Shown: piece by piece, positions 22,560 to 33,386 of the stretch
Position numbering within the stretch: the stretch's first letter is position 1
How the letters are laid out: every line of letters begins with the position of its first letter
Assembly: GCA_002633005.1 (NCBI GenBank)
Contig: NMRA01000534.1
Location: forward strand, 121,577-185,576
Direction of reading: 5' to 3'
Source: Phoronis australis
Taxonomy: Eukaryota; Animalia; Phoronida
Length of the DNA stretch: 64,000 nucleotides
The notes under the pieces: model-generated
Database searches by the model: none
Told to the model about the DNA's origin: nothing
What the model saw: the letters and a program-made list of their open reading frames with translations, nothing else
Made by a program: the position numbers and the translations under genes

Positions 22560-23308
22560 AGTAGATAAGCCCAACAGTGCGTTACATTTCACCATCTACA
22601 GCTCAACAAATAGCAGGAACCTAATTCACGTATGCTACAGCTGAGGTCGGCTTTTAAATTGTGCAGCAATGCTAGCTTTGAATTAGAATTTGTGAAACCA
22701 AATCTAAACAATCTCACCCAGTTAAATGTGGCTGTGTAACAACTGGAAACCTTGCTATGCGTGACTGAACATTATATAAACGCTCCCCATAAAAGTTGTA
22801 TGTAATTGTGTTGCAAACAAAACAATGTACAATCAAGAGCTTGTACTGTATTGTGAAATTACACATTGCAAACTGAAATACGACTAAGCACGTTTAACAA
22901 TGAAATCATTCAAAAATTCCTATTCAACAGACATTTTCACAAATTAATCCACTACATGTTGACAATGATCCATAAAAATCACTAAGGTGAATTATTGTAT
23001 AACTTCTTGAATGAGTTAACAAACACCATGTCAATGTAATTAAGAACTCTAAAAAACAACCATGATGCATGACTAATAATGACTTATATTTACACAGGTA
23101 AAAACCCTGATGAGACGGTGAGAATGACTTTTGCGCACCCCAACAAGCAATGACTTAGTACCTGTAATCCTTATGCCGTTCACTCCCATACAGGAAAATA
23201 TTGGCATCTACACTGTTATCGTACTGAGTTTGCTTTCAAACAAATGATAATACCGGTCATGATACTGGGTGATTATTCCCTGACCTCCCTCATGGTGAGC
23301 ACTGTCCA

Positions 23309-23328
23309 TGTGTGTGTGTGTGTGTGTG
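23309..23328. repeat. (TG)n microsatellite in the RBM39 3' UTR
   Basis: tgtgtgtgtgtgtgtgtgtg. Confidence 0.9.
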
Positions 23329-23404
23329 AGTGTTTACTGCGGCTCATCACACAGCCAGTTGCTTCATAGCAAACGTGTTCACTATTAAGTCCCTATTCAC
23401 CTTC

Positions 23405-23544
23405 CTACATCACGCCTGCCATGGCTGGCTGGGCTCCGTTAATGGCACGTGTGGTGGGCATCACCAGATGGACAGCTCTTTGTGCGTCTGGGAACAGGCT
23501 GTGGTAGTTAGGTAGAGGCACGTATGCAGCAGTGATCATCTTAC
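23405..23544 (-). CDS. RBM39: RBM39 last coding exon (end of UHM domain, stop TAG)
   Basis: (G)KMITAAYVPLPNYHSLFPDAQRAVHLVMPTTRAINGAQPAMAGVM*; cttcAG acceptor. Confidence 0.95.
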
Positions 23545-24196
23545 CTGAAGAAAAACGCACATCACCTTAAACACCGACTCGTTCCAAATACTCCTTCATA
23601 ACTGGTCATAAAGCAGCCCATAAAACAAACGTGATAGTAAATGGCTCAACTCAAAGTTAACAACACAGCCACACCAAAGTAAACATAACTGTATGACATC
23701 TGAAGTCTACAGGCAAAGCATTCTTAATGGGTAGACCACATGACCAAAATACGATCATTGCAAACAGCGACCTAAACAAGACAACAGCTTTGTTCAAATA
23801 CAGACAGGCAAGCATGCACAATTTGGCAAACAGTATCAAATCTATGAAGACTGGTATCAACTTAATCGACTTTGGTTTGTGTCGGCAACACAAAGGAATA
23901 ATGGACCTAAAAACAATTATGTGAAGTAATACAAATCGCGTAACAGCAGAACTAAAGATGTAAATAGACAAAAAGTTGTGCTGACAAGGATTACACTGAA
24001 AGACAAAAAGGAAAACACTAAGGTTTAACTCTCGTAATTCAGATGCAACCATTATCTGAGCACTGTGACACCGAGTTAAATGAATGTCCCTGTGAATCAG
24101 GTGAACTTAACACAGCAGGACTTTGTCTAGTTATGTGCATCTGACTTGTGCAAATTTTGCCTTGTCTGACACAAATTATCCATAAACACCACTCAC

Positions 24197-24381
24197 CAGC
24201 AAACCATCGCCCGTGGAGTGCTCCAACAGAGGCCACCGCTGAAGCTATACTAGGACACTTGACGTAGACATTACCCTGAGGTGACGCCTTGTCGACATAG
24301 ATGTGCTGCACCCCACCATGTTTGTTACACTCCTCGATCACATCGTCACGGATTTCATGCTCCCAGTTGGGATTGGTTTCT
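24197..24381 (-). CDS. RBM39: RBM39 exon (UHM/RRM3)
   Basis: ETNPNWEHEIRDDVIEECNKHGGVQHIYVDKASPQGNVYVKC...LHGRWFA(G), with the UHM RWF motif. Confidence 0.97.
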
Positions 24382-24608
24382 CTACAAACATACAACATAT
24401 ATGTAAATTTATGTTAACTACCAATAAAGAATCAATCCAAGCTATATCCTCATACCAAAATATGACGGCACACCCCCTCCCCCCTTGTACACCAAGTCAC
24501 AAAATGTAATAAACTAACATTTTCAGAAGCACATGTAATCCCATATACGTAACACCAATGCTCAAATTATATGCTTCATGCAGCTGCCCAGGTAACTTTA
24601 GTACTTAC

Positions 24609-24747
24609 GTGGCCGGATCAAACATGTTGGAGAGCATGAAGCACTGTGTGGCAATAGGTGGCGCTCCGACAGTCGGTGGGGGAGCTCCCACAGTGCTGGG
24701 CATGTTCAGCGCATTAGCCGCAACCTGTGGTATCTGGAAGCCTGTGC
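24609..24747 (-). CDS. RBM39: RBM39 exon (linker)
   Basis: (G)TGFQIPQVAANALNMPSTVGAPPPTVGAPPIATQCFMLSNMFDPA(T); AG/GTAAGT. Confidence 0.95.
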
Positions 24748-25038
24748 CTGTAAACAAGAGGGAACACTTCAACTACAAGCTTTTGGAAAAGTTTGAAAAC
24801 AAATGGCATTTAAAATAATTGATCAACTAAGCAATTCATGAACACTATACAACCAATGTGTCTGTAAAACAAGAAAAACAAGGTATAATTTCCTAATTAA
24901 CTGTAAAGGAACGAAACACACCCTCTCAACTGTATTCAGACTTAGAGCGATTTAAACCCAAAATAGAGGCAGATCTTTTCCGGATTTCATTTACACTTAA
25001 TTAAAAAATGGCTCTCATATTCAGTGCCGCGAGCTTAC

Positions 25039-25243
25039 CTTCGGCTAACTTGGCCATAAGAGCCAGTCGTCCGGTGGCGCCCAGGTCCACGCCAGCCCGG
25101 TCCAGCTCATCGCTGTCCAGCATGGCCTGGCCCTGTATGTCTGCCGTCCTCTCGGTCACGTGACCCACCTTCATGGGCCGACCTGCCAGTTCAAAGCCGT
25201 TCAACTGTTGCAAGGCCTTCTGAGCATCCTCACCATTGTGGAA
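25039..25243 (-). CDS. RBM39: RBM39 exon (C-terminal half of RRM2 and linker)
   Basis: FHNGEDAQKALQQLNGFELAGRPMKVGHVTER...LDSDELDRAGVDLGATGRLALMAKLAE(G). Confidence 0.97.
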
Positions 25244-25897
25244 CTGTAACAGAAGTTTTACTGAAGAGTAACGAAGTAGGCAGGACGGACCTGATTAGAG
25301 GATACCATCGCCAGGTGAATGGTGTTCATCAAGAAATAACAATTGAGTTCATGGTGATGGAACAAGTGTATTGAGCAATGAAAGACATGTTGTCGACATT
25401 AAAACAACTCACAAAACATTGTAACACAAACACTTATATCGTGTCACTGGCCTTTACACTCAGTTCTATAAGCTTCAGGCTTTTATCACTGATCCTCAAA
25501 TACAGTTTAATATTGAAAAATTTGCTTCAAGTTTCTGAAAACTATTATCGCTACACGCCAGTGGTGTGCAAAAGAATAACAAAACGTAACCAACACGGCT
25601 GTGAATTAGGGAAATCACCACAAACAAACAATTCACCACACAGCAAAAACAGCACACAGACAACCTTTGTAAAGGTGTCCTTAATAATGTTGTGAATAAA
25701 TGTACCCAGGCACTGCTTAAGGACACACTGTTGGGGCCAAAATACATGCGAGTCAGCGAACACACTAACAATCTTGTTTAAAGACTCCATATTCTGCAGC
25801 ACATGCAGCAGCTAATGGCAAGCTGCACCTCAACCCGTATAGCCATGCCAGGCTACGCAAGGTGTTCGCAAACCACTCACTGGCGTCGCCTACTTAC

Positions 25898-25963
25898 AGT
25901 GACAAACCCATAGCCCTGGGACCGGCCTGACTCAAAGTCTCTAATTAATCTGATATCGTCTAC
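25898..25963 (-). CDS. RBM39: RBM39 RRM2 alternative exon B (66 nt, putative mutually exclusive)
   Basis: cttttcaccAG|VDDIRLIRDFESGRSQGYGFVT|GTAAGT; phase 0-0; carries RNP1. Confidence 0.9.
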
Positions 25964-26019
25964 CTGGTGAAAAGAGACAGACAGTGGATGAAGAATGACG
26001 ACAACTCCAAACTACTTAC

Positions 26020-26085
26020 TGTTACAAAACCAAATCCCTTTGACCTCTGAGTGTCCGTGTCCATGACAAGGTTTATGTGATCAAT
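26020..26085 (-). CDS. RBM39: RBM39 RRM2 alternative exon A (66 nt, putative mutually exclusive)
   Basis: TACTAAT branch point (26109-26115), ctctttcAG|IDHINLVMDTDTQRSKGFGFVT|GTAAGT; phase 0-0; carries RNP1. Confidence 0.9.
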
Positions 26086-26456
26086 CTGAAAGAGTACAAT
26101 TGCTGGTAATTAGTACAGACCAATAGGATGATCACATGTAAAACAGCAGCAACAGTTTTACGAGCAACAAAATCAGACGGTAGAAATCAGCTACATCACA
26201 AGTTGTTGCTGTTGTTACACCACTGTCAAGGGAGGCAAGACATTTTGCAGTGTATGCTGCGCTGATGCAGAGCTGTGTTACCGACACAATGTATTAAGAC
26301 AAGGCAGTCACTGCTACAGAACTATCGATGAAAACGTACTGCAGACTGTGATCAGAGCACGACACAATAACAGTCCCTTCCCATACACAAAACTAATCCC
26401 TAGCCACATTTATTACTAGTGCCCCCATCTCATCACCAATCAGTAGGCTGCCCTAC

Positions 26457-26753
26457 CTTGCCAAAAGGTTCAAATATGCCCCTCAGCATGTCCTCCGTAA
26501 TGTTGAAGTGTAGCGAGCCCACGTAGAGCCTCATGGGCCCACTGACACCCTTGAAGCCCATCGCCGGCTGGCCAGTACCGCCCACTCTGTTCTTCTCGGC
26601 CATAGACTGCTGGACCACAATGGGCACACCCAGCAGCTTCTGGCCGCTCAAGCCGATGCCCAACGGTACGGATTCAACCTCGGCAAACTCCACATAGGCA
26701 ATACCCTTTGATTTCCTGTTCTTGTTATCCGTAATGATCCTCACATCTCGTAC
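26457..26753 (-). CDS. RBM39: RBM39 exon (C-terminal half of RRM1, start of RRM2)
   Basis: VRDVRIITDNKNRKSKGIAYVEF...GPMRLYVGSLHFNITEDMLRGIFEPFGK. Confidence 0.97.
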
Positions 26754-27014
26754 CTGAAAACACAGCAATGTTTCAAAAGGGAAAAGAACATAACTCACAA
26801 TACAGTGTAGATACTGATGACCAGAACTAAATTATATGACATGACAAAAATTATCATTTCAAGAAATTCACAGTAGTCTATTAGACGTGATATATTCAAA
26901 AACGCAATACTACTTTCAATCCAGTAGCTTAAAAATATCTCTTCGGTGTTTAAGCAAGCATACACTTCAACAGCACCCTCAGCCACAGCAGAGTATGTGT
27001 GTGAGTCAAGCTAC

Positions 27015-27162
27015 CTTTCCAACTGATGTAAAGAACTCCTGCAGGTCTCTAGGCCTGATATCAGCAGCTAGCTGCATACAGAATATGGTACGTGCGTCTC
27101 TCTCCTCAGGGGTCAACTCGGGCAGGGTCTCCGTCTTCTTAATAGACATATAACCATTGTTC
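27015..27162 (-). CDS. RBM39: RBM39 exon (start of RRM1)
   Basis: (M)NNGYMSIKKTETLPELTPEERDARTIFCMQLAADIRPRDLQEFFTSVGK; phases consistent. Confidence 0.95.
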
Positions 27163-27232
27163 CTAAAATACACGAACAAATGTTAATGACTTGTGAGTAA
27201 CAACAGCACTACTCTTTACGAGCTAAAAGGCT

Positions 27233-27345
27233 CATAGGGCTGGCTACTAACTCTGGTTTCTGTGGAGTAAGCGGGTGAGAGCATTCCTATTTTCCCCAAA
27301 TGGGATGTTAGTCTACAGCAGGATGCTTCCAGATACTGCTGGTGC
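27233..27345. repeat. Degenerate fragment of a SINE-like interspersed repeat
   Basis: gggctggctactaactctggtttctgtggagtaagcgg...gggatgttagtctacagcagg resembles a widespread invertebrate interspersed repeat (recognition only). Confidence 0.35.
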
Positions 27346-27788
27346 TCCTTCACCATAAGGTCGAATAAAACAACACATAAAGAACTCGACACAGGCGAAA
27401 ATGTTGGCTGGAAAATACGAGTGACAGTGTGATTTGCACTCGTATTTCCGAATAAGGGCTTATAAAAAAGTGGTGACCAAAAACGGTCGGAATCATGGTC
27501 AGCACTCGTTTGCGTGATCCAACTTTGAACTCGTATTTCTCATTTTCCACTCTTAGAAGAATAACACCGTAAGTCATTTGCTGCTTTTTCCACTCTTATT
27601 TTCGGCCGTTTACTCGCACAAAACCTGCTTTAACAGTCTGGTTTTCAAAATCAATAGAAGGCCAAAAGCAATTCATCACTATGCCTAAGCTTCGAGAAAT
27701 GCAATAGCACATCAGACTGTAAGATTGTACAAGCCAGCTACAGGAAAACCAACAAAGTCCTAAAATCTGTTCCCCCAAAGCCACTCAC

Positions 27789-28040
27789 ATCTCAGTGGAA
27801 CCATCCCTTTCATGCCTTCGACCTCGCCTTTCCCGCGATCTGGACCTTCGCCGCTCCCTCCTGTCCCGCGGTGGCGACGCTCTCCTACGCTCCCTACTCC
27901 TACTCCTGTGGCGCCTGTTTTCTCTCTTCCGATCACGACTGCGACTCCTTCGTTCACGTGGCTCACGACTGCGACGACGTTCCTTGCTTCGACTACGTTT
28001 CTTGTCTCGGTCACGCCGGTCCCGACTTCTGCTGCGTCGT
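27789..28040 (-). CDS. RBM39: RBM39 RS-domain exon
   Basis: RRRSRSRDRRDRDKKRSRSKERRRSRE...HERDGSTE(M); tttcAG/GTGAGT; phase 2-2. Confidence 0.95.
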
Positions 28041-28756
28041 CTGAAAGAAAACAATTCTTAATTATACTAATCAGGGCTTGGAATGACCAATGGCAAAAAG
28101 AGGAAAATTTCCAGGTAATGTACCATTCCACAAATAGGCACGTGTGATAGAAATATTTTTGTGTTGTAAAATTTATCTGAAATAAATGTTTTTGCATGAA
28201 TAAAGTCAAAATAACGATATAGTCAGAAAAAAGAGGAAACCAGAAATAAAAGGAGAGGAAATCGAAACCAACAAATAAGAAATCCTCTTAAGAGGAAAAT
28301 TACAAGCTCTGAGTCAATTCATAGCAAGTGAACATAAAGTGCAATATTTCAACCAGTATTTATTCTCAAGTAGTTTTCAATAGAAAAAAATGATTCACAC
28401 ATAACGGTCAATGCTAATATAGCCAACTTATTGCTCTTCGAGTTCATAAAAACTGCCTAACAATTGACATTGACCTTGAAATTTTCAAGTACACGGCACT
28501 AAACCAAATGACATTTTAAAACACTACTTGAAGCAACCCCCCTATCGCTAGGATTTTGAGTGACAGCTTAACTGACCAATCAGAACGCAGCATTCTTGAT
28601 ACACCTTCGTTTCCAAACTGCCATTTTACCAGACAAACAACAGTCGGATAAAACTTGTCGTTTGTTTGTGGATTTTTCGCAAGGGTGCGGAGCTTGTGAT
28701 AGGTCAATCCCCAAGGACAAGTTTCATCAAACAATGTATGCGCTACTGTTTCTTAC

Positions 28757-28800
28757 CGTTTTGAGTCCCTGTCATGATGGTCCTTGCTGCCCACTTCATC
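28757..28800 (-). CDS. RBM39: RBM39 coding exon 2 (44 nt)
   Basis: cAG|DEVGSKDHHDRDSK(R)|GTAAG; phase 0 to 2, joining the ATG exon to the RS exon. Confidence 0.85.
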
Positions 28801-29855
28801 CTGTGCCGAGAAAATGTCACATGATGAGAAAGACGGCGATCCAAGCAGAGGAGGGAAAGAAAATTGTACAGACAGCATTAATCTCAAGTCATAAAACGAC
28901 CTTAACACCAACACAACGCAGCACACAAACCCCACCCACTAATCTCCAGAACAACTTCACTTCTATACAAAAACCAGTCTCCAACCCAATACTATTCCCT
29001 ATGGTTAAATACCCGCTGCAGGTCATTGTGTGTTGTTCAAGACCCAGCTACCCTCATTCTAAGGAGAGGCACCATGTGTCCATGTACGTTGCCCATTGCA
29101 AAGCTGAGCACTCCACCACGACCGATTCAACACATTTAAACATTGCATTCACACAAACAAACACATACGCGCACACCAAGTAGCCCTTCAGATGCCAAAC
29201 ACTTCTCAAGACTACCCAGACACACCTAATAACCCGCCCTCCCTCAACCCAGCTGAAAAGAAGAAGTGTGGGTAACAGTAGCCTGTCGTCGTGTTCTAAC
29301 CATTGACTGGCCGACCTGGTCCTACGAGAGTTGGTCCTTGGCGGGTGAGCACCAGTGCTTGTAGCCATGGGGCATCCTGCAGTAGACCAAGGGCACAATT
29401 CAGTGTGGACGCTTGCAACGACGAGACAAGTCAGCTTAGGTTAGAAACAGTTACCGCACGCCCAAACAGTTACACAAAGCATGACCGATAAGAAAATGCC
29501 AATGCGTCAACATTGGATGAGCAGAGAACACATTATAACCAAAGTTCAAAGAAATGGAGACTGAAGTCCGACACACGAACGTCACTACCAATTCATCTTA
29601 TTATTAGACTATAAAGAACCAATTAAATCTTAAACTATTCAGTTTTTGCACCATGTATTTTATGTCAATTCCAATACTAAAATAACAACCCATGCACCTA
29701 AAACACAAACAGTAGGAAACTGTTCACTGCCACACGTTATGTTCAAAAAACTTTGTCAGCCCACAAACTGCTCATTATAATTTCCAAACGTCTCAACGCA
29801 CAAACCTGTGCCGAAGTAAAAATATAAAAAATCAAATACTACATGTTGGCAATAC

Positions 29856-29927
29856 CTTTGTTCATGTGAGTGTGAAGGAGTCACATTGAGATCGATGCCT
29901 TAGCTGTAACAATTCAATTTGAGGAAT
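29856..29927 (-). other. RBM39: Candidate RBM39 poison (PTC) cassette exon
   Basis: ttgttttttatcttAG acceptor and AAG|GTATTG donor; in frame it reads IPQIELLQLRHRSQCDSFTLT*. Confidence 0.5.
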
Positions 29928-30524
29928 CTAAGATAAAAAACAATGCGCCAGATATAGTAATCATTCAAAATAGAAACCAGCGTCTAGCTGGACAAAGCAC
30001 ACCCACTAAAAATGGTCAAAACAGCTATTGGAAGAACTTCTAAATATTGTACTAACTGAAATGTATACAGCAAGTTCACGAGTAAAAGCCATATTGTCCA
30101 TATGCATCTGGTATTCGTAGTATATACTGACATGCATGTGTTCTAATGACCGGTGTCATTTTTGATTTGGTTTAGCATTTCCTAAAAGAAGTAATTGACT
30201 TTCTAAATCACTTCAAGTCAACAGAAATTTTTACGCGACTGCATCATGTTCTTGGTGAAGCTTGCAAGAGATATTTTTGGCATGCTCAACTGTCTCGAAC
30301 TGATGGTATCTTTGATGCAAGCTGCAAATTTGATGTACTACAAATGCATGCTCAATATAACTTTAAAACGCAACGTGAACAAGCCAATTAAAATAGCTAT
30401 GAACCAGCCTTCAGTCAGAAAACAACTAATTTTTGTTTCAGAGCACTTGCCGTCACAAAAATTGTCTTCAATTGTTCCGTGAACTGGGAATGGAAAGATT
30501 CGACAGTATACTACTCGTAATCAT

Positions 30525-31543
30525 TAAGTAATAACGCTCAACTCAGCCAGCCATTTATGCTCTATGCATGACCTCAAGCAATAACAAACTGTCAGTTACT
30601 TCCAAATCCAGGACAGAGTTCCAGCAAAAATCTCACCAACAAAGCTGGCATGATCATTTGTAATACATGGCAATAGCTCGTGTCTTGTGTCTACAGAACG
30701 CACGACTGAATTCACTTATCTGAGTAAAGAACAGCTAAAGACCTGTTCTACAATGGAAAGGGATCTAACAAAACCTTAGTCTTTCTAGACTGAAGGCGGG
30801 ATGACAGCAAATTGAAGAATAAACTTCCATCAGCATTGTTACAAGAACATGACAAGAAAAGCTCTTTCACCTGCATGGTTCCACCAGTGATCACTTCACA
30901 TCCCAACAACACAATTCACAATGTTTAAGTTGATTCCCAAATCAGTGACTCATGCAACATGAATTTCAACGAGCTAGCTAATTGATATTTTTATAAAAAT
31001 ACATTACCTCCTTCTTGTAAGGAGCCTCTAGCATAGCCTCGACGTCAAAATCATCGGCCATTTTCCAAGGTTTAAACCTGAAACAAGCAAAATGAGATAA
31101 CAAAAATCCAACAGTCGTCATTTTTAACAAAACTCATTCACAACAAAATCGAGGGGTTAACTTCCAACATACTCTTTTTGTTCCAACATAATCTTGACAA
31201 GTAATCACTAAAAGTCAAACTTATCTATTCCATTCTAAAGCGGCAGTACAGAACTCCACATTCTTATAAGATCAGCCAGAGAAAAAACTGCTTCATATCA
31301 ACAAGTGTGTGACATTATTCAGCTGTCAGAGCAGCTTTTAATGATTAATAGTCATCTGCATATCAAAATTAAATAGGACTTCCCTTTCCTCTAGTCCTAA
31401 TAAACATACTTATTTGCAGATAAAACAAACATTAAAAAGACATAAATAAATTCTTGCATGGCGTACTTAACAACAACACTAAGTTACAAAGTGAAGCCAC
31501 AATTTATTCTTCTCATTTTTATGAAAGACATCAATCTGAAAGA
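30525..31543. repeat. Duplicated segment containing the RBM39 ATG exon, copy A (probable haplotype duplication)
   Basis: Matches 31917-32935 at offset 1392 with a few SNPs and ends exactly at N31544. Confidence 0.9.
31008..31061 (-). CDS. RBM39: RBM39 start-codon exon, duplicate copy
   Basis: MADDFDVEAMLEAPYKKE|GTAATG, identical to 32400-32453. Confidence 0.8.
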
Positions 31544-31916
31544 NATCAATTTTCATATATGTGTTAACACCAGTTTAGTGTTGCATAACTTTTCAATTCA
31601 ATAGGACTACAGACAAATAGTTGGCTCAAATCAAGTTGCCCATGACTTGATTAATGGCTTAGTGAACATATTGCACTCTGTTCACTGGCAATATGGGCTT
31701 TTTTGTATTGGGATAAGTTAGGATATTTTGAGTTTTGACGGCTGAAGTAACCAACCTGTCAACATTTAAAAGGTCAAAAAAATACCACCCAATTTTAATG
31801 CATCACTTCTTACAGGAACCACCACCCATAATTTGATTTTTTTTCCTCAGACCACCACCCATATATTTTTATTTCTACTGCCGTCCCCCCCCACACGGAT
31901 TTTACTGGAACAGCCC

Positions 31917-32935
31917 TAAGTAATAACGCTCAACTCAGCCAGCCATTTATGCTCTATGCATGACCTCAAGCAATAACAAACTGTCAGTTACTTCCAAATC
32001 CAGGACAGAGTTCCAGCAATAATCTCACCAACAAAGCTGGCATGATCACTTGTAATACATGGCATTATCTCGTGTCTTGTGTCTACAGAACGCACAGCTG
32101 AATTCACTTATCTGAGTAAAGAACAGCTAAAGACCTGTTCTACAATGGAAATGGATCTAACAAAACCTTAGTCTTTCTAGACTGAAGGCGGGATGACAGC
32201 AAATTGAAGAATAAACTTCCATCAGCAGTGTTACAAGAACATGACAAGAAAAGCTCTTTCACCTACATGGTTCCACCAGTGATCAGTTCACATCCCAACA
32301 ACACAATTCACAATGTTTAAGTTGATTCCCAAATCAGTGACTCATGCAACATGAATTTCAACGAGTTACCTAATTGATATTTTTATAAAAATACATTACC
32401 TCCTTCTTGTAAGGAGCCTCTAGCATAGCCTCGACGTCAAAATCATCGGCCATTTTCCAAGGTTTAAACCTGAAACAAGCAAAATGAGATAACAAATATC
32501 CAACAGTCGTCACTTTTAACAAAACTCTTTCACAACAAAATCGAGGGGTTAACTTCCAACATACTCTTTTTGTTCCAACATAATCTTGACAAGTAATCAC
32601 TAAAAGTCAAACTTATCTATTCCATTCTAAAGCGGCAGTACAGAACTCCACATTCTTATAAGATCAGCCAGAGAAAAAACTGCTTCATATCAACAAGTGT
32701 GTGACATTATTCAGCTGTCAGAGCAGCTTTTAATGATTAATAGTCATCTGCATATCAAAATTAAATAGGACTTCCCTTTCCTCTAGTCCTAATAAACATA
32801 CTTATTTGCAGATAAAACAAACATTAAAAAGACATAAATAAATTCTTGCATGGCGTACTTAACAACAACACTAAGTTACAAAGTGAAGCCACAATTTATT
32901 CTTCTCATTTTTATGAAAGACATCAATCTGAAAGA
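31917..32935. repeat. Duplicated segment, copy B
   Basis: See 30525-31543; preceded by a MITE terminus (aacagccc|TAA) that copy A lacks. Confidence 0.9.
32400..32453 (-). CDS. RBM39: RBM39 start-codon exon (full exon 32400-32469)
   Basis: tttcAG acceptor at 32470; MADDFDVEAMLEAPYKKE, the conserved RBM39 N-terminus; GTAATG donor. Confidence 0.92.
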
Positions 32936-33386
32936 AAACAAATGAGAAAATGTCAGATCAACAGCTGAAATTTCAACCACGATGCAAGCACCCACAAAGT
33001 GGTTGGCATATTTCAAAGTCATTAAGAAATTGACGATGGACGACATAGTGAAGAAAAAGATTATTTTGGTTCAACTTTGAACTTCGAATTTGTAGTCACA
33101 ATAGAAAAGCCTTATAGATAATACATGAAACTCAACTCTTCCAATTTTATTTCCAATAGAGCTGTCAGATTATTAGGAACTTTTAGATTTCAATCGAAGT
33201 CAAGTAATTAGGTTATGGGAAAAGACTGCGAAGGTTAGTTAAAGAATGTATACATCTTGGAGCAAAAGCTCTCAACTTCTCTCCATTACTAAAGTGATAA
33301 CAAAATTCAATGCATAAAATGTTTATTTAAGAAAACGTTAATAAGGACTGAATGTAACATAGCATTTTTGTGAGTGCCCTTTAAGA

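Follow-up and report, generated by a model that had tools for sequence, protein, structure and literature searches.

Tandem alternative exons for the beta2-beta3 segment of RRM2 in the RBM39/Caper gene of Phoronis australis, likely spliced one at a time

Background

The closest known counterpart of the exon pair reported here lies in the same gene of the brachiopod Lingula anatina. Its RBM39 is represented by RefSeq isoforms X1 and X2, both computed models of 535 aa, which swap the same 22-residue segment: they display 11 differences, all within residues 288-308, and are otherwise identical over the 535 aa. Lingula X1 carries VDDIKLIKDPQTGRSQGYGFAT, which is similar to exon B of the present locus, while Lingula X2 carries MDHLNLVMDTETGRSKGFGFVT, which is similar to exon A. 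This animal belongs to another phylum-level lineage, and the alternative is known there from protein isoforms.

A second likeness, and the nearest one described for a splicing factor, is found in vertebrate U2AF1, where exons Ab and 3 are not a multiple of three, so that double inclusion is removed by nonsense-mediated decay (NMD). As in RBM39, a U2AF-related splicing factor uses tandem homologous exons as alternatives to yield two isoforms (U2AF35a and U2AF35b), and the choice is described as governed by an exon-spanning stem-loop and by U2AF65 (PMC5224494). The two pairs differ in gene, domain, and clade. Furthermore, the RBM39 exons measure 66 nt, a multiple of three; hence, the NMD route of the U2AF1 type cannot act on them and cannot police double inclusion.

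A third group comprises pairs for which exclusion is attributed to steric hindrance. For the exon pairs of alpha-tropomyosin and OGDH, a steric limit has been proposed at a donor-to-branch distance below about 50 nt, with OGDH branch points reported 25-41 nt from the donor (PMC7969005). In C. elegans, the intervening introns are described as too short to excise in 5 of 10 clusters of 3n-length exons, with the smallest spliceable intron at about 40 nt (PMC4165533). What these cases share (alpha-tropomyosin exons 2/3, OGDH exons 4a/4b, and the C. elegans clusters) is a branch point of the downstream exon that lies too near the upstream donor; the locus described here has a 56-nt intron with a predicted branch-like site at +31.

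Vertebrates also harbor two versions of the RRM2 segment in one organism, as RBM39 and RBM23 (IESIQLMMDSETGRSKGYGFIT and IDNIVLMKDSDTGRSKGYGFIT). Unlike the present pair, these were born of gene duplication and not of exon duplication, and both have K and Y in RNP1. A survey of tandem exons in human, fly, and worm characterized such events as rare, mostly ancient, marked by conservative substitutions, often tissue-specific, and convergent in vertebrates and invertebrates; lophotrochozoans fall outside its scope, and RBM39 has 0 occurrences in its main text (PMC9741552).

Here, we analyzed a stretch of 64,000 nt of the Phoronis australis genome (the window). The explanation in which we place considerable confidence is that tandem 66-nt exons of RBM39/Caper code for alternative versions of the beta2-beta3 region of RRM2, including RNP1, that they are likely spliced one at a time, and that the intervening intron of 56 nt is predicted to prevent A from being spliced to B.

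Structure of the RBM39 locus

The gene displays the domain order of RBM39/CAPER: an RS region, RRM1, RRM2, the RBM39 linker (PF15519), and a C-terminal UHM. From 5' to 3', these are spread over a first coding exon (present in two identical copies), an RS exon, the exons of RRM1 and RRM2, that of the RBM39 linker, and C-terminal UHM exons. The features are as follows, with the source of each in brackets.

23380..32453, minus strand: RBM39/Caper gene (tblastn of ten relatives, RNA joints, Pfam RBM39linker PF15519)
32400-32453 and 31008-31061, minus strand: first coding exon, MADDFDVEAMLEAPYKKE, two copies (tblastn, RNA joints)
About 28048-27791, minus strand: RS-rich exon (tblastn)
27122-27012, minus strand: exon (tblastn)
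26457..26751 (to 26756 by tblastn), minus strand: upstream constitutive exon (tblastn, Pfam RRM_1, RNA joints)
26109..26115, minus strand: predicted branch-point-like motif UACUAAU, 5' of exon A (motif scan and sequence)
26085..26020, minus strand: exon A, 66 nt, phase 0, IDHINLVMDTDTQRSKGFGFVT (sequence, RNA joints)
26019..25964, minus strand: intron between A and B, 56 nt (sequence, motif scan)
25963..25898, minus strand: exon B, 66 nt, phase 0, VDDIRLIRDFESGRSQGYGFVT (sequence, RNA joint)
25243..25038 (to 25037 by tblastn), minus strand: downstream constitutive exon, beginning FHNGEDAQKALQQLNGFELAGRPMKV (tblastn, Pfam, RNA joints)
24757-24608, minus strand: exon (tblastn)
24380-24192, minus strand: exon (tblastn)
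23557-23399, minus strand: exon (tblastn)

The coding content of the upstream constitutive exon runs from the last part of RRM1 through the linker to beta1-alpha1 of RRM2, with ...GIFEPFGK as its final residues; the exon is bounded by the RNA joints 26750/26751>27012/27013 and 26085>26457. The downstream constitutive exon codes for the remainder of RRM2 and the beginning of the RBM39 linker, its first residues being FHNGEDA.... A preliminary description of this DNA, made from the letters alone, had placed a pair of 66-nt phase-0 exons with AG/GTAAGT sites between ...IFEPFGK (end 26457) and FHNGEDA... (start 25243), and re-reading the coordinates and sites gave the same arrangement, with AG before and GTAAGTAG after each exon.

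The exon borders of the gene are backed by RNA joints. The intron between A and B, on which the preliminary description is silent, has 56 nt, as opposed to 227 to 776 nt or more for the other RNA-defined introns of the gene, and it contains the pyrimidine tract of exon B. Upstream of exon A, the predicted branch A of the UACUAAU motif is position 26110, 24 nt from the 3' splice site. Pfam matched RRM_1 and RBM39linker PF15519 on the exons of the window; the UHM exon had no Pfam match of its own but shares 87% identity with residues 422-484 of the Lingula protein, a stretch that aligns to solved chains of the human RBM39 UHM. A search of window positions 23000-33000 against Rfam gave no match.

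Divergence of the two exons

Exons A and B have equal length and phase, and they have 11 of their 22 residues and 35 of their 66 bases in common (31 bases differ). The common residues use different codons in 9 of 11 cases, and both residue and codon counts of the preliminary description were reproduced from the sequence. To place this likeness against background, exon A was compared with 37,860 stop-free 22-mers taken from the six frames of the window, whose scores had a mean of -21.6 and an sd of 9.65. Exon A itself scored 115 and exon B 63, followed by the paralogous segment of RRM1 (26753..26688) with 36 and the next best with 26. Exon B thus stands 8.8 SD above the background of 22-mers, indicating that its likeness to A is not due to chance. 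Neither tblastn of ten relatives nor the six-frame scan of 22-mers found a third copy of the exon in the window.

The dN/dS comparison proposed in the preliminary description could be completed in part: dN between A and B is 0.42, but synonymous sites are saturated, leaving dS undefined and the ratio without a value. Comparison with other species is informative in this regard. Exon B of the window is identical to the Lingula X1 segment at 16 of 22 residues and to the only exon of Lottia at 18 of 22, while the constant exons of the window are 59-87% identical to those of Lingula, exon by exon. Since the identity of B is on par with that of the constant exons, it would be lost under neutral drift over such distances. 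Judged by these comparisons, both exon copies appear to be under constraint at the protein level. The claim that the tandem duplication is old and no artefact, and that constraint acts on both of its copies, is upheld by the saturated synonymous sites and by the relatives of both A and B in other phyla.

An origin of the pair by misassembly or haplotype duplication is hardly credible. Local artefacts are conceivable, since the first coding exon of this very gene stands twice at 100% identity; yet the two exons have different bases at 31 of 66 positions and different residues at 11 of 22, the donor joint of B occurs in RNA, and both types exist in Lingula. Copies as diverged as these rule this explanation out.

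Distribution of the two segment types

A protein search with the upstream exon retrieved 2,047 relatives, and the segment was read in the best 120 of these, among which Lingula anatina was the best named relative (80% identity). A search with the 44-aa stop-free frame around B returned 3 candidates, none of which scored, and B-type relatives were found via full-length proteins. Two types were apparent, namely an A-type of the form I-[DE]-H-I-N-L-V-x-D...RSKGFGFVT and a B-type of the form [IV]-[DE]-D-I-K-L-I-R-D-H-E-T-x-RSQGYGF... Arthropods and vertebrates display a single type, I-D-x-I-Q-L-x-M-D...GRSKGYGFIT, in agreement with the earlier claim of one such segment in human RBM39, inasmuch as a single segment was read in vertebrate RBM39. 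A variant of heterobranch snails makes up a fourth class.

The types differ consistently across phyla at at least six positions. Among the positions that were not used to define the types, position 3 covaries with them (H in 9 of 10 distinct A-type segments vs D in 20 of 21 distinct B-type segments), as do position 10 (H in 20 of 21 distinct B-type segments) and position 21.

The distribution of the types follows phyla. Among the relatives listed, every named mollusc has either the B-type or the variant of heterobranchs, and RefSeq gives 2-4 isoforms for several of them; the named molluscs are Mytilus, Crassostrea, Saccostrea, Solemya, Sinanodonta, Potamilus, scallops, Haliotis, Patella, Lottia, Gigantopelta, Babylonia, and Batillaria. 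The named annelids among the relatives listed (Owenia, Ridgeia, Lamellibrachia, and Dimorphilus) have the A-type in 4 of 4 cases. We opened 20 protein clusters, built at 90% identity (a level that hides isoforms), to look for both types within one cluster. Only that of Lingula held both, and the other 19 held a single type. Two further proteins, P0019 (B-type) and P0039 (A-type), are 88.9% identical outside the segment (304/342) and share only 13 of 22 residues inside it, a pattern that would be expected from an exon swap between close relatives.

One B-type RBM39 transcript from Logan (P0026) has an extra IDDIKLMRDHT just before IDEIKLMRNHESTRSQGYGFIT, doubling the beta2 part; this may be a spliced-in partial exon duplication or an assembly error.

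Genomic contigs from metagenomes were scanned with the upstream exon, giving 80 loci, each of which was then searched for segment-like exons. One contig whose nearest proteins are those of caenogastropods (L016) covers the full interval between the flanking exons and has a B-type exon only, without a relic of A. Another (L047) likewise has a B-type exon only, with no A within 478 nt upstream. Three annelid-like contigs (L011, L014, and L015) have an A-type exon, and stop 42, 151, and 250 nt past it.

Two metagenomic loci, L002 (962-1167) and L079 (1949-2557), display another tandem pair at the same site, IDFVTLAMDNATGKSKGFGFVQ followed by INHINLMMDNESGRSKGFGFVT, both bordered by AG/GT. Their genomes are related, with about 80-85% base identity, and are separated by 12 base changes in one exon and 9 in the other, every one of them synonymous. 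Between the paired exons lies an intron of 74 nt in L002 vs 477 nt in L079. Both exons are placed in the A-type clade. The pair stems from a second duplication of the RBM39 exon, independent of the first, and both of its copies are likewise constrained.

Age of the duplication

A maximum likelihood tree of the segment (22 columns) split the two types. The A clade unites window A with Lingula X2, the named annelids (4 of 4), and other proteins, with support of 99/98 (98/96 in a second tree). The B clade comprises window B, Lingula X1, and all named molluscs, with the heterobranch variant nested inside, also with support of 99/98 (99/97 in the second tree). Separate A and B clades across phyla suggest that one duplication took place before brachiopods, annelids, and molluscs parted. 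We infer that the A/B pair is probably an old lophotrochozoan tandem duplication that predates this split, and that, among the proteins sampled, annelids would now display the A-type only and molluscs the B-type only. One A-type protein (P0031) falls inside the mollusc clade of the tree built from the constant part of the protein, with weak support. In that same tree, from which the segment columns were dropped, the window species stands among non-mollusc lophotrochozoans, where its place is not settled, and is not near Lingula (path length 0.66).

We also considered that the duplication is young and confined to a brachiopod-like lineage, the likeness of A to annelid segments and of B to mollusc segments being convergent. 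Holding window A and B together cost 13.0 lnL (AU test, p 0.139), and holding the four segments of the window and Lingula together cost 17.0 lnL (p 0.141), neither being significant with 22 columns; trees that unite these segments thus survive the test, and only 1 of the 20 protein clusters examined, that of Lingula, has both types. Set against this are the free tree, which separates A and B at 99/98 each, the cost of 13-17 lnL for the constrained trees, the six or more positions that remain consistent with type across phyla, and the saturation of synonymous sites. We judge a young duplication decidedly improbable and favor the old one. The preliminary description had named a lack of conservation of one exon in related species as evidence against the pair; instead, both types are present in Lingula, and each has its own clade (99/98, with the AU tests not significant).

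Exon usage

The RNA data comprised three RNA-seq runs with the same species label (X2, X3, and X4) and a set of transcript contigs (X1). Reads were mapped to positions 24900-26900, using about 18-19% of each run, and the table of joints is complete for those with at least 3 reads, which sets the detection limit at 3 reads per run. The relevant joints, on the minus strand, were the following.

26085>26457, upstream exon to exon A: 93 reads in run X2, 70 in run X3, 163 in run X4
25243>26020, exon A to downstream exon: 84 reads in run X2, 68 in run X3, 211 in run X4 (sum 363)
25243>25898, donor of exon B to downstream exon: 0 reads in run X2, 0 in run X3, 3 in run X4 (three start places)

In the RNA sampled, exon A is used by default, with 363 of the 366 donor-side joint reads. 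The transcripts seen in this species carry A alone, as in a contig of 1,953 nt from set X1 that consists of the upstream exon, A, and the downstream exon. The donor of exon B is recognized at a low level, with the remaining 3 of the 366 reads. Depth over B was 0, 0, and 3.5 in runs X2, X3, and X4, and run X4 has an intronic background of 2-3. Mapping over the whole gene, with the best-supported joints tabulated, brought no further evidence on exon B.

No joint between A and B (26020>25963) reached 3 reads in any of the three runs, as against the 363 reads that lead from A to the far acceptor, and the same is true of the joint from the upstream exon to B and of the double skip. Transcripts that routinely contain both exons, which had been named beforehand as evidence against mutual exclusion, are thus not seen at this threshold of at least 3 reads in three runs. 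The junction counts proposed in the preliminary description were obtained for the route through A (363 reads, with neither A+B nor double skip at the 3-read threshold), but the route through B is represented by the 3 donor reads and has no upstream joint at that threshold. Mutual exclusivity itself fared in a similar manner: it agrees with Lingula X1 and X2, which hold one version each, and with the lack of A+B and double-skip joints at the 3-read threshold, but B is barely used here, with 3 reads from one joint of one run and an acceptor joint that never appears in the table. We regard mutual exclusion of A and B as likely.

The same figures could mean that exon B is vestigial in this species, that the gene in effect makes the A isoform only, and that the reads of B are splicing noise. 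Its donor joint has 3 reads vs 211 for A in run X4 and none in runs X2 and X3, its acceptor joint was never listed, and run X4 contains intronic background reads. Nevertheless, the frame of exon B is open, AG and GTAAGTAG still flank it, its pyrimidine tract is a good one, and it is still 16/22 identical to the Lingula B-type segment and 18/22 to the only exon of Lottia despite the saturation of synonymous sites between A and B. A vestigial B is therefore, in our view, improbable, and we retain the reading of two alternative exons.

Reads of run X4 display another base in about half of the cases at eight places of the upstream exon, between 26466 and 26709, and those of runs X2 and X3 at none, indicating that X4 derives from a different, heterozygous individual.

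Probable mechanism of exclusion

The length of the intervening intron suggests how the two exons may be kept apart. With 56 nt in total, at most about 46 nt separate the donor of A from any branch point of B. A motif scan found a single yUnAy site within this intron, UUCAU, predicted to place the branch A at 25989, which is +31 from the donor of A and 25 nt from the acceptor of B. We propose that the branch point of B would be forced to lie within 56 nt of the donor of A, with the site at +31 as the only candidate, that a spliceosome assembled on this donor would therefore be unable to use the acceptor of B, and that B would be chosen solely when A is skipped. Exon B is likely kept for a tissue or developmental stage outside the RNA sampled. 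The donor of A bypasses a good acceptor 56 nt away in 363 of 363 reads, which fits steric blocking. Hence, we infer steric exclusion of the splicing of A to B, with the branch point being a predicted one.

Exclusion might instead be imposed by trans-acting repressors or activators, or by competing RNA structures. The separate pair of L079 has an intervening intron of 477 nt, which implies that a short intron is no general requirement, and the 56-nt intron is connected by inverted repeats with the introns on either side (I1, 27 nt at 70%; I7, 12 nt at 92%). However, such pairing does not exceed what chance would give: of 300 dinucleotide shuffles, 158 equalled or surpassed the duplex energy of the 56-nt intron with the upstream intron and 133 that with the downstream intron, and the local fold, with z = 0.34, lends no support from RNA structure. 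The bypass of a strong nearby acceptor by all 363 reads is also what steric blocking predicts. We consider a non-steric mechanism unlikely, and steric hindrance remains our preferred reading.

Competing RNA structures of the Dscam or ATE1 type were rejected as a candidate mechanism, with a fold z of 0.34 and duplexes no better than shuffles, both from a single species.

Consequences for the protein

The position of the swapped segment within RRM2 was judged on the Lingula proteins. AlphaFold models were obtained for the two Lingula isoforms, each with a 35-sequence alignment that mixes types. Both models display the same RRM2 (beta1 262-267, alpha1 275-285, beta2 288-295, beta3 302-310, alpha2 313-323, and beta4 334-338), with block pLDDT over residues 281-310 of 95/92/93 and 95/93/93. 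This corresponds to the canonical RRM fold, with RNP2 on beta1 and RNP1 on beta3, and Pfam RRM_1 matches both isoforms equally, at residues 264-333. The swapped residues 288-309 cover the whole of beta2, the beta2-beta3 loop, and beta3 minus its last residue. The models and Pfam matches thus bear out the initial assignment of the segment to the beta2-loop-beta3 part of RRM2 with RNP1.

Positions 1 and 3 of RNP1 in RRMs often touch the RNA backbone and sugars, and it is at these positions that A and B have K vs Q and F vs Y, respectively. Elsewhere in the segment, they have Q vs G before the arginine, and N/R and M/R on beta2. Counting along the vertebrate segment, we take human R289, S290, and F295 to be segment positions 14, 15, and 20; on that count, these three residues are identical in A and B. 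They are the contacts that the segment makes in the human RRM2-RNA structure, R289 and S290 from the beta2-beta3 loop and F295 from RNP1, and RRM2 is reported as the main mRNA-binding module of human RBM39 (PMC10477243).

Whole phyla have one type only, indicating that either type must support the core function of the protein. With the contact residues shared, the A and B isoforms would likely be full-function variants of RRM2 that differ in fine affinity or in partners, and a fine shift of this kind between isoforms is plausible. The switchable RNA specificity inferred in the preliminary description finds no support in that form.

A bolder scenario, which we find doubtful although conceivable, is that lophotrochozoan RBM39 contains an ancient switch in RRM2, more than half a billion years old, in which two versions select different RNA targets and so define two programmes. 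Annelids and molluscs would each have fixed one version, a further duplication would have given another lineage the switch anew, and form B in the present species would serve a cell type or stage outside the sampling.

Novelty and implications

A full-text literature search, with the matches judged mostly by their abstracts, found no description of alternative RRM2 exons in RBM39/Caper; the matches on RBM39 and mutually exclusive exons concerned RBM39 as a regulator of exons of other genes. The preliminary description had suspected that the pair was undescribed, and this stands as far as papers are concerned, but both isoforms are already contained in the NCBI RefSeq models of Lingula. The exon pair reported here is real and conserved and belongs to a well-known kind; to our knowledge, it has not been described in this gene.

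The swap between A and B in RRM2 of this conserved splicing factor provides a natural pair of variants for a direct comparison of RNA preferences. It is, in addition, a clear instance of exon duplicates that were retained reciprocally, with annelids showing one type and molluscs the other, and the independent second duplication of the RBM39 exon suggests that diversity has been selected repeatedly at that spot. The known mechanism of mutually exclusive splicing is unchanged by this pair. It enlarges the small set of cases open to steric testing by one of 3n length whose intervening intron is very short.

Other features of the gene

The two copies of the first coding exon (MADDFDVEAMLEAPYKKE), at 32400-32453 and 31008-31061 on the minus strand, are 100% identical over at least 80 nt. 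They lie within a tandem repeat (30525-30824 vs 31917-32216) with a spacing of 1,392 nt and 98% identity, and a single N stands at 31544. Joints from 29927 to the two copies were supported by 8/11/36 and 9/10/38 reads in runs X2/X3/X4, although reads cannot distinguish identical copies. Either the exon was duplicated recently or the doubling arose during assembly.

Many transcripts use alternative 5' exons on the minus strand, at 29927..29855 and at 29375..28757 or longer. The joint 29375>29855 had 18/25/35 reads in runs X2/X3/X4, while the first exon was joined directly to the short exon 28800..28757 by only 9/8/19 reads; read depth was 25-133 across 28678-30013. Conceptual translation of the alternative 5' form from the ATG ends at a stop 22 codons past exon 1. 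The form resembles one with a poison exon or a long leader and brings to mind the autoregulatory poison exon reported for human RBM39 (PMC10477243).

Lastly, two regions in introns of the gene, 28010-28677 and 31350-32017, have no Rfam match and display very deep pile-ups of reads on both strands, with many loose ends. The most likely explanation is that an expressed repeat or transposon has copies in both regions.
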